Positions 1-8,347 of a DNA stretch of 46,686 nucleotides are shown here, in pieces. The stretch covers positions 1 to 46,686 of IMG/VR virus record IMGVR_UViG_2778261229_000001; one strand, 5' to 3'. The notes beneath the pieces were generated by a model. It was not told where the DNA came from, did not search any database, and saw only the letters and a program-made list of their open reading frames with translations. This DNA is from a virus. Taxonomy: Duplodnaviria > Heunggongvirae > Uroviricota > Caudoviricetes. A program made the translations under genes and the position numbers. Each line of letters begins with the position of its first letter. Within the stretch, counting starts at the first letter, position 1.

Positions 1-1143
1 CTATGCTGTTTTGATATCTACGATAATCCAGTCTTTACCACGATCATCATTGTATCGGTCGGTCATTTTTCTGGATTTATGACCTAACAACTTTTGCGTA
101 TCCAGACCCTGTTCCCGATATAACCGTTCTGACAGAGATCGCTGCTCATGAAATGTGGGCGCAGTTCCTTGCTCCCATTTTATGCCACATTTTTCCCTGG
201 CCTTTTTAAAAGCCGTTGTCAGAGTATTTGCAGAAACCTGGTCTCCTCTGTTTGCTTGAGAGGTAGTGTGATGGTAATGGACCAGATATTTACTAACAAC
301 AGCATCCCTGCACTGAGATATAACTTCACGAAGGGTAATATTCAGAGCATCGCATTTCAGGTTAAGCGGAATAGCAAGTTTTGAACCGGTTTTTTCCTGA
401 GTAATGTGCAACATGTCGTCCCAGATATCAGAGAATTTCAAATTGCAGATATCGCCTAAACGTTGTCCAGTGACAAGAGCAAGTAGCATCCCGCATTTTA
501 AATAGGGCTGCCGTCTGCTTACGCTGTCAAATATTGCCTGCCATTCGGGCAGTGATAATCTTTGGCGGTTTACTCGATTTCGCGGTTGTTTTGTTGCCTG
601 CGCTGGGTTAAATCCTGGCGGAACATGTCCTGCGTGTTGTGCTTCTTTGAAGACGTCGATCAACACCATTCTCACGACTTGCGCCATCCTGTTATGACCT
701 TCAGCCTTTACAGCATCAATTATTTCGGCAATATCAAGTGCGGTAATATCCTTGAGGTGTTGCATTCCACAATGCTCACGGAAAAGACGAATGGGTTTGC
801 CTTTTTGCCGATAGGAGTTGGGTCTTAGTTCATTATGTTGCAGCCTGTCCTCCTGGATAGAAATATATTTATCAAGCCATTCTGTCACCGTAATGTCTGA
901 GCGCCTGCCTTTCATTCTTTCCAGACGCTCATTGACGCTTAATATTTGTCGAGTACGTTGTTCAGCAATAATGGTATTTGCTTCAGTAGCAACTTGTTTT
1001 GCTTCATTCTCATCAGTTCCTAAGCTATGAAAACGACCGGATAGTGGATGTTTGTATTGCCAATATACCTTTCCGGTTCGCTTATCTAATTTGCAATATA
1101 AATTGGGTATAGAGATTTTGTGAGATCGGGGTCTAGCAGCCAT
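1..1143 (-). CDS. int: Tyrosine site-specific integrase (lambda Int family)
   Basis: 380-aa ORF; C-terminal HxxR...Y-type region (..FHEQRSLSERLYREQG..LLGHKS..) resembles lambda Int; position at prophage end next to xis. Confidence 0.88.
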   Translation of the reverse strand: MAARPRSHKISIPNLYCKLDKRTGKVYWQYKHPLSGRFHSLGTDENEAKQVATEANTIIAEQRTRQILSVNERLERMKGRRSDITVTEWLDKYISIQEDRLQHNELRPNSYRQKGKPIRLFREHCGMQHLKDITALDIAEIIDAVKAEGHNRMAQVVRMVLIDVFKEAQHAGHVPPGFNPAQATKQPRNRVNRQRLSLPEWQAIFDSVSRRQPYLKCGMLLALVTGQRLGDICNLKFSDIWDDMLHITQEKTGSKLAIPLNLKCDALNITLREVISQCRDAVVSKYLVHYHHTTSQANRGDQVSANTLTTAFKKAREKCGIKWEQGTAPTFHEQRSLSERLYREQGLDTQKLLGHKSRKMTDRYNDDRGKDWIIVDIKTA

Positions 1144-5218: not shown

Positions 5219-5629
5219 TTAGTGATTCAGGCCGTTACCGCGTCCGTCGAGAAAAACTTCCACGAGCAAATCACGGGTATAAGTGCGCTCGATGCCGCGA
5301 TGCAGATAAAGCCGTCCGCGTAAATTAGCTGATGCAGTCCAGGTACCATCTTTGTGTTTGACCAGCATTCCTGGCATGACCGCACCTCGATTAACGGTCT
5401 GCGTTCCGTAATGTTGATGAACCATAAAAACTCCTGCCCGTAAGCTGGGCTGCTGAACATATAGAGACTTCTGCGCGTATTCAGGCGGTGGATGGCCGCC
5501 GGTTGTCATAACTAAGCCGCCTCGTTGAAGCGACTGAGGTATGAGGTGTTGAGTTGATTTCAGCTGGTCACACCGACGTTCACACGTCCGTTTCACCCCT
5601 CGCACTCCCCGGAGCCTGCTGAAATTCAA
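5219..5629 (-). CDS. Hypothetical protein, first gene downstream of the putative pL (N position); Arg-rich N-terminus
   Basis: 136-aa ORF directly downstream of the predicted leftward promoter/operators; no confident similarity to lambda N; an alternative-frame ORF (5227-5460) also exists. Confidence 0.3.
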   Translation of the reverse strand: MNFSRLRGVRGVKRTCERRCDQLKSTQHLIPQSLQRGGLVMTTGGHPPPEYAQKSLYVQQPSLRAGVFMVHQHYGTQTVNRGAVMPGMLVKHKDGTWTASANLRGRLYLHRGIERTYTRDLLVEVFLDGRGNGLNH

Positions 5630-5702
5630 GCTGCGGATCTAAGCGGTCATCGCAACGGTGAATCAGGTGGTTGCCGTATCGTTGTGTTGTTGCGATGAAC
5701 TC

Positions 5703-5731
5703 ATTTAAAACTATAGTTGTTTTACCGTCAA
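5703..5731 (-). promoter_or_regulatory. Putative pL promoter with overlapping operator OL1
   Basis: Minus-strand TTGACG-17 nt-TTAAAT; spacer carries AAAACTATAGTTGTTTT, near-identical to the operator in the pR spacer; further GTTGTTT half-sites to 5781. Confidence 0.5.
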
Positions 5732-5788
5732 CAACAAAAGTTGTTTCATTGGTTGTTTTAGATATAACTGGTTGTATTTAGGATGGAT

Positions 5789-6412
5789 TTATTTTGTGAC
5801 TTGCATCGCATAGCGATAACTGAAGCGGGGGGTATGGTGGTTTTTTGAACGGTGTGTGATGAGGGGAGGCAAAAGAAAACCCGGCACGACGGCCGGGGAG
5901 GGGGGGCATTTTAATCTATCAAGGAGTGACTCTCTTTCCTTCTTCTCTGATTCTCTTCGGTTTAATAACGCTTTAAACTCTTGAAGCTCAACCATTATTT
6001 TATGAACGAATACACTGGTATAGAGAGAAATAAAGAGTAATCCACCTGAAATTTTTAAGACCCTGAAGAGTAGGGCTTGATCATTTGTGCTTGCTATTAA
6101 CCCCAAGATTACAAACAAAGTTGAAAATACATAGAAAGCTAATAATAAAACCAATTTCAGTCTCTTGGATTTGACTATTGGCACTAATCGCCTAACCTCA
6201 CTAGGGGTTAAAGACGAGTGGTCATTGGCCTCATTTGCCTTAAAAATGGCTTGTATACAATATGATAATGGCAATTGCATGAGTCCAACCACAGCCCACG
6301 GAGCAGTTAGGACAACACCCGGTGTAATATAGCCCAATGCTGACTTGAACAAAAAGTAACCAGCAAAATAGAAGACCAACATACCAATAAGGTGGATGAT
6401 GTTCGATTTCAT
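5789..6412 (-). CDS. Four-TM membrane protein of the rex-position cassette (RexB-position analogue)
   Basis: 207-aa ORF; four hydrophobic segments then a charged coiled-coil-like stretch; RBS AGGAGGG upstream; 21 nt after the upstream gene; AT-rich; last ~40 codons run into GC-rich backbone. Confidence 0.6.
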   Translation of the reverse strand: MKSNIIHLIGMLVFYFAGYFLFKSALGYITPGVVLTAPWAVVGLMQLPLSYCIQAIFKANEANDHSSLTPSEVRRLVPIVKSKRLKLVLLLAFYVFSTLFVILGLIASTNDQALLFRVLKISGGLLFISLYTSVFVHKIMVELQEFKALLNRRESEKKERESLLDRLKCPPSPAVVPGFLLPPLITHRSKNHHTPRFSYRYAMQVTK

Positions 6413-6433
6413 TATCGCCCTCCTTTTGGTAGG

Positions 6434-7456
6434 TTATTTTGCAACCAATTCTCCGGCATCAAGTTTTGAGAACAGCCACTTATGCATTTTTAAGAATAAA
6501 TCATTTTCATCAATAATGCCATTGTTATATTCAACGCTAATTTTTCCGGATAATTTTATCTCTTTTCCCGTTATTTCCCCACCGCCTTGAAGTTTGATGC
6601 TAATATCATCCTCATCTAGATGTCGTAGTGAGGTAGCAATACTGTCTATAACAGCTTGACCGCTATCATTTGTTTTTCTGAAGTATGTAATCTCGAGGCT
6701 TACTTGTAAATTGGCCTCATCTAATGAATCTTTAATGTTTATATCATTTGCCCAGTTATCGCCAAAAAATGCTTTTAGTAGCGCACCTCCTTTCCCTATT
6801 GGGCGGTATTTTATTGTCTTCACCGAACCATTTGAAAAGGAGGGTGTTTGGTTCTCTGAATTTTTAACTTCTGAAGTAATGGGTAATCCACCAATTTTTA
6901 TGCTCTTGGCTGGTGCTTTCTCCATTTTTTTCATCGTTTCTTCGGATGGCTTATCTTGAAGCATTAACACAGATTCTTTTTCATCTGTGAATGTATTAAT
7001 TAGCCAATTCAAATGCGCCTCAAGCTCCCTTGCTCGAAGCGATGTGGATTGAACGATCATGACATGGTTGTTTAGTACACCAAAATATAAAATTGAATCT
7101 ACAAACTCTCTTTTTTTGTCACTACGTTTATCTCCATCAATAATTATATCATTAGACGTGATGGAGTTAATGTCATAAAATTTAACATTATCACTAAGCT
7201 CTAATAGAGACTGGCTTTTGTCTTTTTCAAATAAAACCAGTTGCCCAAAAAGTATAGTTTTGTATGTGTCGCTTTTATTTAAGAAACGATACCCCGAATT
7301 TTCATCTGAAGGTGTTATTTTTTCTTGTCTACTAAGTACTTTTTCTGCAACGCCGCCCTCACCTATAATACTAAGTAGTATGTTTTGTAATGATGATTTG
7401 CTGTGTGGGATTACTGCTTTTTTATAATGAACGACTTTTTGTCTGTTATCTTTCAT
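6434..7456 (-). CDS. 340-aa soluble protein of the rex-position cassette (RexA-position analogue), function unknown
   Basis: Long AT-rich ORF downstream of and co-oriented with cI; no TM segments; no motif I recognise. Confidence 0.6.
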   Translation of the reverse strand: MKDNRQKVVHYKKAVIPHSKSSLQNILLSIIGEGGVAEKVLSRQEKITPSDENSGYRFLNKSDTYKTILFGQLVLFEKDKSQSLLELSDNVKFYDINSITSNDIIIDGDKRSDKKREFVDSILYFGVLNNHVMIVQSTSLRARELEAHLNWLINTFTDEKESVLMLQDKPSEETMKKMEKAPAKSIKIGGLPITSEVKNSENQTPSFSNGSVKTIKYRPIGKGGALLKAFFGDNWANDINIKDSLDEANLQVSLEITYFRKTNDSGQAVIDSIATSLRHLDEDDISIKLQGGGEITGKEIKLSGKISVEYNNGIIDENDLFLKMHKWLFSKLDAGELVAK

Positions 7457-7513
7457 TGCTATAGTCCAACTAGTATTGAATAAATAAACACAGTAAAGAC
7501 ATAAAAATTTCTT

Positions 7514-7543
7514 ATAGCTACCGATAACGTAATCGGTAGCTAT
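7514..7543. promoter_or_regulatory. Perfect 12-bp inverted repeat (ATAGCTACCGAT-aacgta-ATCGGTAGCTAT) between cI and the cassette
   Basis: Read directly from sequence; lies in the 120-bp gap between cI stop and the cassette start. Confidence 0.5.
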
Positions 7544-7578
7544 TACAAATCAACCAAAGGTAATTCTTTACATACTAC

Positions 7579-8268
7579 CTACCCATGCTTCCTGTAGGTC
7601 TGCGGCATGCTCCCAATAACTTTCCCGAAGATAAACACCCGGTTCATCTCGTCTTTCTCAATTGGGTCCCACGGCGAGTAGCTCTTGTTATCAGAGATAA
7701 CCAGTAGCTTATCCTTCATCATTTGCAGGCGCTTTACATGGGCTGTGTCGTCGTACAGAAACGCATAGATACCATCACCGTCGAAAGATTTAACTGTGAT
7801 ATCAACGAACAGCAGATCACCTGGTTCGATCGTTCCTGACATGCTGTCACCACGCACGTTAATGATGCGGATATTTTCCGCCTTCCTACCATCGAACATG
7901 TGACGAGCATCGTCAAACGAGTACTCAACCGAGCGTAGAACTTCTACAAACTCACGGTTGATGACTCCCGGCCCAGCACTGACTTCTATATCAAGAACGT
8001 CAATCTTAAAGTATTTGGAATGGCTGACAGTTGATAGTATTGGTTGCACTGTACTGTCTGACATATTTCCAACGCCAGAAGATAACCATTCTGCGCGCAC
8101 ACCCAAAGCGTTCGCGATCTCCACGATTTTAGTTGTTTGGTTAGCTTTCCCTGTTTCGATTTTCTGAATAGCAGCTTGGCTAACCCCGACCAAATCCCCA
8201 AGCGCCTTTTGTGTAAGGCCTCGCGCTAATCTGGCTTCTTTAAGTCTTTCTGAGAGTGTTGTTTTCAT
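7579..8268 (-). CDS. cI: CI-like prophage repressor (XRE HTH plus S24 LexA-like peptidase domain)
   Basis: N-terminal HTH (LTQKALGDLVGVSQAAIQKIETGK), Ala-Gly cleavage site, Ser (GDSM) and Lys (HVKRL) dyad; start trimmed to ATG at 8268; divergent from cro. Confidence 0.85.
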   Translation of the reverse strand: MKTTLSERLKEARLARGLTQKALGDLVGVSQAAIQKIETGKANQTTKIVEIANALGVRAEWLSSGVGNMSDSTVQPILSTVSHSKYFKIDVLDIEVSAGPGVINREFVEVLRSVEYSFDDARHMFDGRKAENIRIINVRGDSMSGTIEPGDLLFVDITVKSFDGDGIYAFLYDDTAHVKRLQMMKDKLLVISDNKSYSPWDPIEKDEMNRVFIFGKVIGSMPQTYRKHG

Positions 8269-8278
8269 AGTCCAAATG

Positions 8279-8347
8279 TACAACCAAGGTTTTATTCCAT
8301 CAAACGAAAATGGTTGTTGACTAAAAACAACCATAGTTTTAATCTTG
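8279..8347. promoter_or_regulatory. OR operator region with putative pR (TTGACT-17-TAATCT) and three operator-like repeats
   Basis: Repeats of ACAACCA(A/T)(A/G)GTTTT motif at about 8282-8297, 8300-8319, 8324-8340; 25-bp palindrome ATGGTTGTT-N7-AACAACCAT at 8310-8334. Confidence 0.55.

Follow-up and report, generated by a model that had tools for sequence, protein, structure and literature searches.

What kind of system occupies the rexA-rexB position of a lambdoid prophage when neither of the two genes found there encodes a recognizable motif? The question is raised by a pair of minus-strand genes, here called A (6434..7456) and B (5909..6412 in the form usual in its relatives), in a viral DNA of 46 686 nt (IMG/VR record IMGVR_UViG_2778261229_000001; this whole stretch is referred to below as the window), which is a complete lambdoid prophage. 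RexAB of phage lambda was the first phage-exclusion system to be described, yet its trigger and the step by which RexA activates RexB are still unresolved. The initial annotation of the window, made from the sequence alone, proposed that the cassette was a novel exclusion module. We find that A and B form a real, conserved, lysogen-expressed two-gene module and, arguing by analogy with characterized systems, we put the probability that it is a RexAB-type two-component phage-exclusion or abortive-infection module, carried as prophage accessory cargo and expressed in the lysogen, at roughly 0.6. It is most likely a new or newly recognized member of that known kind and not a categorically new system; the earlier proposal is supported in part, with anti-phage activity as a putative function.

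The arrangement of the locus is that of the lambda immunity region. Read along the minus strand, the locus consists successively of a cI-like repressor, a spacer of 122 nt, A, a gap of 21 nt, B, a hairpin followed by a T-tract, a pL-like promoter, and kil, gam, bet and exo; lambda rexAB (Pfam PF15969 and PF15968; PDB 8TWQ) shares both the slot and the order of repressor, soluble protein, four-transmembrane (4-TM) protein, terminator and OL/pL. The placement given in the initial annotation, 3' of a cI-like repressor and 5' of an OL/pL-like region, is borne out by HTH_3 and Peptidase_S24 domains in the repressor and by a TTGACG-17-TTAAAT promoter-like site with operator-like repeats, and the 21 nt gap does contain a ribosome-binding site for B (GGAGG, 6419..6423, minus strand, 6 nt before the B ATG). 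The cassette is AT-rich, as had been remarked, its GC content of 36.0 % lying below that of cI (46.6 %) and of the window (50.5 %), and lambda rexAB is likewise AT-rich relative to its cI (40.9 and 45.2 % GC, respectively). The logic of a soluble protein followed by a 4-TM protein in this slot therefore holds, and what has to be decided is whether the resemblance extends to the proteins themselves.

Gene A encodes a soluble protein of 340 aa (38.2 kDa, isoelectric point 6.4). It has no match in Pfam, PADLOC-DB v2 or NCBIfam (Pfam RexA was absent at E≤1), and both A and B match solely PHROG families of unknown function, 3482 and 16807. A word-indexed search for relatives of A gave 130 matches (Enterobacterales, Aeromonas, Pseudomonas, Halomonas and methanotrophs), and an exhaustive HMMER search gave 792 clusters at 50 % identity with E≤1e-3, of which 286 were below 1e-30 and which include Acinetobacter and Dasania; about 26 positions of the alignment are invariant. 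A structure of A was predicted from a 57-sequence alignment (mean predicted local distance difference test score, pLDDT, 69.6; predicted template modelling score 0.68) and is well supported at residues 1-90, 121-185 and 270-340. When this model was compared with the PDB using Foldseek, lambda RexA (8TWQ) ranked first and second (E 1.1e-3, probability 0.97), which makes it the closest known fold to the predicted A. The modelled elements come in an order that fits the split globular domain, inserted dimerization domain and terminal helix of RexA: the N-terminal part has seven strands with helices, an alpha/beta segment occupies the middle, and the C-terminus is a long helix. The predicted model thus has the RdgC-like architecture of a split globular domain with an inserted dimerization domain by which RexA-type proteins are recognized, RdgC being the reported structural relative of RexA (PMC11077077).

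Gene B, as found in relatives, has 168 codons and encodes a basic 4-TM protein (19 kDa, isoelectric point 9.8). The length of 168 aa is that of E. coli strain 317, of phage Perceval and of 16 out of 16 aligned homologues. Relatives were hard to reach from the single sequence; once the partners found 3' of distant A homologues had been added to a profile, 50 proteins (168-180 aa) came up, with identities down to about 20 %. An AlphaFold2 (AF2) model (pLDDT 86) consists of four long helices (2-27, 39-64, 70-107 and 112-167), hydropathy gives four hydrophobic segments (5-27, 33-56, 86-108 and 113-137), and 16 of the 31 residues in a C-terminal stretch are charged, so that the four TM helices and the charged segment noted previously are both present. 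B therefore supplies, next to A, the 4-TM partner characteristic of RexAB-type systems. By the positive-inside rule a cytoplasmic position is predicted for its termini, central loop and charged C-terminal helix, and the same topology, with termini and central loop cytoplasmic, has been proposed for RexB and for gp31 of the actinobacteriophage Sbash. The loop between TM2 and TM3 (residues 57-85; 29 residues, polar, net-positive) holds the most conserved residues of B: across 40 homologues with identities of 20-72 %, E72 and K83 never vary and R74, R75 and R85 hardly do. In Sbash gp31 the equivalent cytoplasmic loop is functionally essential, the substitutions R70A and D73A within it abolishing defence.

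Several observations weigh against a RexAB-type assignment and must be set beside this evidence. The A model is of medium confidence, its mean pLDDT being the 69.6 already given, and residues 99-118 and 191-254 fall below 50. Its global TM-scores (template modelling scores) against RexA are low (0.24-0.29), as is to be expected because this is a hinged two-domain protein. Sequence comparison gives no link at all: Pfam RexA (PF15969) matches none of 57 A-family members at E≤10, B has no match in Pfam (RexB, PF15968, included), PADLOC-DB v2 or NCBIfam, and profile alignment with hhalign gives a probability below 1 % for A against RexA, even with a 255-sequence A alignment, and of 0.1-0.6 % for B against RexB. 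These comparisons were made with single sequences, with 4-sequence profiles and with the 255-sequence A alignment, and the Pfam search recovered its positive controls, lambda RexA at 1e-97 and lambda RexB at 8.5e-92. Lambda RexB is also absent from the 50 best structural matches of B in BFVD; a 165-aa Sbash protein, possibly gp31, ranks third there (probability 0.90, TM-score 0.48) with an E value of 0.44. The window copy of B, moreover, has lost its stop codon, as described below, and we found no paper that mentions the A or B accessions or the PHROG numbers and no experiment on the A/B family. A sequence-profile search of the PDB yielded nothing useful. Because the defining Pfam domains were tested for and are not there, the cassette lies outside the RexA and RexB sequence families, and the observation in the initial annotation that neither protein has a recognizable motif is upheld. 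Of the homology and structure comparisons with RexA/RexB and with Kiwa, CBASS and Pycsar that it had suggested, the structural one brought A closest to RexA, whereas no sequence match to RexA or RexB and no match to the other three systems emerged.

Expression in the lysogen, which had been postulated for the cassette, could be read from published data on a close relative. Phage Perceval, a prophage of the adherent-invasive E. coli (AIEC) strain LF82, carries the cassette region at 97.6 % DNA identity and protein A at 100 %, and the RNA-seq values given here are those of its genes LF82_152, LF82_153 and LF82_154. LF82_152, annotated as a transmembrane protein and corresponding to B, is transcribed 81-fold above the prophage background in LB medium, and cI 11-fold (Misson et al., PMC9928086); the S1 table of that paper lists 578, 27 and 78 fragments per kilobase per million (fpkm) for B, A and cI, and about 5 for kil, gam and cII. 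A and B are thus transcribed in the lysogen, in which the lytic genes on either side are silent, and the cassette, like the RexAB-type systems, is prophage-encoded and lysogen-expressed. In another condition of the same table the A read counts rise threefold and cI falls threefold, a shift in the A:cI ratio of about 9-fold. Because A rises while cI falls, part of the A/B transcription must be independent of the cI promoter. Transcripts of B outnumber those of A 2- to 20-fold in Perceval, which suggests a second promoter for B alone. Lambda rexAB, also expressed in the lysogen, has an extra promoter, P_LIT, and the excess of the membrane-gene transcript in the present cassette recalls it. Promoter-like sites within A lie at 6836..6808, 6710..6682 and 7170..7143 on the minus strand, none of which we treat as established; the region has 11 such sites against 7.7±2.3 in shuffled sequence, no excess.

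The pairing of the two genes is strict. A relatives of 35-100 % identity are encoded in 80 IMG/VR loci, of which 78 have a B homologue immediately 3' of A on the same strand; these are all 78 complete loci, since in the remaining two A is truncated or at a contig end. Most gaps measure 0-25 nt, the extremes being -80 and +128 nt. Of 24 further loci, taken from species-representative genomes and from one Stx2a and one Acinetobacter phage, 23 have the pair, and in the 24th, from Cytophagales (A relative of 28 % identity), an overlapping 208-aa ORF with B-like architecture was missed by the profile. The loci with the pair span Gammaproteobacteria. The full cassette is present in 42 of 5426 complete E. 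coli genomes (about 0.8 %), invariably annotated as hypothetical. The pair also occurs in Shigella phage SfIV and in Stx2a phage 1447 (AP012536; locus L101, 2992-4555), where the two proteins have 343 and 179 aa and 34 % identity. In Acinetobacter phage phi1_092021 (PQ859669; locus L100, 2983-4490) the A homologue follows a repressor and is annotated as 'DefenseFinder protein', a label that would fit either a family already listed by a defence database or a structure-based annotation.

The surroundings of the pair vary. In Pseudomonas and Methylobacter it comes after an S24 repressor; the Aeromonas copy is the last element of a P4-like satellite, behind the primase; the pairs of Klebsiella aerogenes and of many relatives stand between HicAB or lysis genes and the Q antiterminator; and in Stx2a phages the pair stands between Q and a methylase/tRNA/stx2 block. 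Among 66 distinct upstream neighbours, 12 have Peptidase_S24 and 17 HTH_3, and the others include holins, lysozymes, HicB, tail proteins and methylases; the pair also occurs at tail-gene ends. In E. coli an identical cassette and 3' part of cI occur in combination with two kinds of cI N-terminus and two operator sets, and a mosaic junction therefore lies inside cI; this mosaicism is seen in locus L020 compared with L021 and L022, and in L001 (Perceval) compared with window positions 5700-5760. A-B behaves as autonomous accessory cargo for which the rexAB slot is one of several landing places.

This distribution bears on the idea that the pair serves the life cycle of the prophage and not defence, with A tuning the lysogeny-lysis switch and B shielding phage or antitoxin proteins from proteolysis. 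The predicted RexA fold of A lends it some weight, for lambda RexA tunes the switch by binding DNA and repressors, a documented role that is independent of RexB (PMC11077077); the pair is, furthermore, expressed together with cI and follows an S24 repressor in the window as well as in the 12 neighbourhoods just counted. Most loci, however, are not beside a repressor but beside holins, HicAB, Q, tail genes or methylases, or in a P4-like satellite without cI, and an identical cassette serves two cI/operator types. The strict coupling of A to B would also be unexpected if A acted alone, and we consider a pure switch role improbable.

A membrane-toxin addiction or host-fitness module, in which B would be toxic and A its regulator and which would stabilize the element or change the envelope with no anti-phage role, is in our view very improbable. 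It would account for B being the top-transcribed Perceval gene in LB and for the pair neighbouring HicAB toxin-antitoxin genes in Klebsiella and related prophages; in addition, among six distant A and B homologues put through PADLOC, the B partner in phage phi1_092021 weakly matches the '4TM effector' model (E 0.0014). That B is strongly and constitutively expressed without harm nevertheless argues against a free toxin, neither A nor B has an antitoxin-type DNA-binding domain according to Pfam, and the RexA fold predicted for A, together with the location in accessory slots of prophages and satellites, where defence genes cluster, fits defence better. The RexAB-type reading accommodates the slot, the predicted folds, the expression and the pairing, and the cassette shows the structural and organizational features used in the literature for RexAB-type systems.

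How the cassette relates to the systems already described is a separate matter. From lambda RexAB it differs in having no detectable sequence similarity and in several properties of the proteins: A exceeds RexA by 61 residues and is acidic (isoelectric point 6.4, against a basic 8.6), and B is 24 residues longer than RexB, with a charged C-terminal helix that RexB lacks. The A/B family is also much more widespread than lambda RexAB and is not tied to the immunity region, canonical RexA being found in 19 phage records. To our knowledge, no more than five or six Rex-like systems have been investigated. Among them the actinobacteriophage pairs (Sbash gp30/gp31, CarolAnn gp44/gp43 and Butters gp30/gp31) share with the cassette a prophage-expressed soluble protein and a 4-TM protein, but in several of them gene orientation and position vary, and in Butters the roles are reversed; Sbash gp30 has a DUF4747 motif in common with RexA, whereas a Pfam search of A and 57 family members found none. 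Kiwa (KwaA, 4-TM, and KwaB, DUF4868) likewise pairs a 4-TM protein with a soluble protein of about 320 aa. Readings as Kiwa, CBASS or Pycsar were ruled out, with no model or fold match and none of the features that define KwaB and KwaA.

Two relatives of RexAB recognized by structure have already been published, Sucellos (10.1101/2024.07.02.601686) and RexABpp of Pseudomonas putida prophage P1 (PP_5643/PP_5644; Rosendahl et al., 2026, PMC12894663), and the A/B family might be one of these under another name and hence already described. Sucellos (SclA/SclB, VCA0367-0368, from the Vibrio cholerae superintegron; Darracq et al., bioRxiv 10.1101/2024.07.02.601686) is, like A/B, RexAB-like by predicted structure and not by Pfam; both genes are required, the system carries a promoter of its own, a membrane pore is predicted, the phenotype is abortive and homologues occur in prophages. 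Sucellos is reported from Vibrio integrons and said to be frequent in Salmonella prophages, whereas no Vibrio or Salmonella A relative was found among the named protein matches, 50 697 phage records, a plasmid collection and 22 loci from species-representative genomes. RexABpp differs from the cassette in being experimentally validated: both genes are needed, its A protein binds DNA, and overexpression of that protein leads to B-dependent membrane damage (PMC12894663). Its B protein has at least 181 aa and a different C-terminus, and HHpred ties PP_5643 to RexA at 98 %, a signal of which there is none in the A/B family. From published primers the ends of PP_5643 and PP_5644 could be deduced (MHRTAT... 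and ...NHSTDV; ...GLYYLGYKLQ); they match none of 332 collected family proteins, and a 19-mer from the start of the RexABpp gene was absent from species-representative genomes, its four metagenome matches being attributable to chance. Each of these differences weighs lightly, and the 'DefenseFinder protein' label in GenBank may come from a structure-based annotator; we think identity with either named system unlikely, if well worth bearing in mind. It is quite possible, and we put it forward tentatively, that the A/B family instead makes up a large branch of its own among RexA-fold plus 4-TM systems, apart from lambda RexAB, RexABpp and Sucellos. The authors of the RexABpp study count 'only five RexAB-like systems' (PMC12894663). 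On this reading the A/B family would be much commoner than canonical RexAB, with members from Enterobacterales to Acinetobacter, methanotrophs and possibly Bacteroidota.

Our current working hypothesis of how the cassette might act is modelled on lambda RexAB, Sbash gp30/gp31 and RexABpp. A, probably a DNA-binding dimer, would sense a product or replication intermediate of an infecting phage and would then activate B through the cytoplasmic loop or the C-terminal helix of B. B would in turn permeabilize or depolarize the membrane, growth would stop and the infection would be aborted. A second promoter for B would, on this hypothesis, set the A:B ratio that controls firing. If the family is indeed a separate branch, its trigger or effector chemistry may differ from that of lambda, given the acidic A and the extra charged cytoplasmic helix of B, and its diversity could allow the Rex trigger to be mapped.

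The value of this assignment lies in annotation and in a useful E. coli entry point to the old Rex problem. Nearly 800 clusters (50 % identity) of what are now annotated as 'hypothetical proteins' would become candidate RexA-fold plus 4-TM pairs, from prophages of AIEC, Shiga toxin-producing E. coli, Shigella, Klebsiella, Acinetobacter and Pseudomonas; medically relevant carriers are Perceval of AIEC LF82, the Stx2a phages and Shigella phage SfIV. The assignment would also give an annotation to PHROGs 3482 and 16807, which sequence-based defence finders miss at present. The deep alignment pinpoints conserved residues (E72, R74, R75 and K83 in B; about 26 positions in A), and E. coli offers a tractable representative with known lysogen expression.

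The window copy of B needs separate comment. Its ORF, 5789..6412, is present as originally described, but the length of 207 aa and the end coordinate reflect the loss of a stop codon: TGC replaces TGA at 5906..5908, and because of this change translation passes through the cassette terminator for 39 codons (5789..5905). The read-through tail particular to this copy (5789..5908, minus strand) comprises 39 proline-rich codons and then TAA. The TGC variant is present in none of 43 complete E. coli genomes that hold the stretch (best identity 99.0 %), and a protein cluster from public read assemblies, P0121, carries it in a 207-aa B. Lying at the edge of a C-run, the change may represent a genuine allele or a sequencing error in the homopolymer. 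The 39-residue cytoplasmic tail may be tolerated, or it may weaken or inactivate the system. The intrinsic terminator lies directly 3' of the normal B stop (5870..5897, minus strand), with a stem CCCGGC-loop-GCCGGG at 5897..5880 followed by the T-tract TTTTCTTTT, and a comparable hairpin and T-run are found 3' of B in several other loci and lineages.

The spacer between cI and A (7457..7578, minus strand) forms the leader of the cassette and contains a perfect 12-bp hairpin at 7543..7514, ATAGCTACCGAT-TACGTT-ATCGGTAGCTAT, then AAGAAATTTTTAT, with a folding energy of -29.5 kcal/mol (z -3.0). The 3' half of this hairpin and about 90 nt of leader are kept 5' of A in the Klebsiella-type loci L028, L030 and L031, despite other upstream genes. 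We conjecture that the hairpin could be an attenuator of read-through from cI or an element of RNA stability. The repressor gene itself (7579..8268, minus strand) was assigned its start by comparison with relatives, the 690 nt gene of E. coli strain 317 serving as the guide, and was counted as an upstream neighbour, outside the cassette. Beside its start is an OR-like palindrome, ATGGTTGTT-N7-AACAACCAT, at 8310..8334 (strand unassigned), in which the AACAAC/GTTGTT half-sites of the pL/OL-like region (5700..5760, minus strand; promoter at 5731..5703) recur. That region is swapped for different repeats in prophages with another cI type. Within 5230-5700, in the interval from the pL-like promoter to a phi80-type kil, no gene for an N-like antiterminator is seen, and about 200 nt of conserved GC-rich leader 3' of the promoter have no match in Rfam; leftward antitermination may rely on RNA or be missing. 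Neither the Rfam scan nor the tRNA scan gave any match in the window.

The first gene of the window is an integrase (1..1143). The closest complete genome is that of E. coli A36, in which the prophage adjoins icd and the structural half of the window is 99.4 % identical. Between the replication gene P and the nin region, a low-GC accessory block (11176-16164) holds an ORF of 1302 aa, annotated in E. coli A36 as an inverse autotransporter, and a convergent ORF of 347 aa, an alpha/beta hydrolase; the block is likely to be an adhesin/virulence moron.

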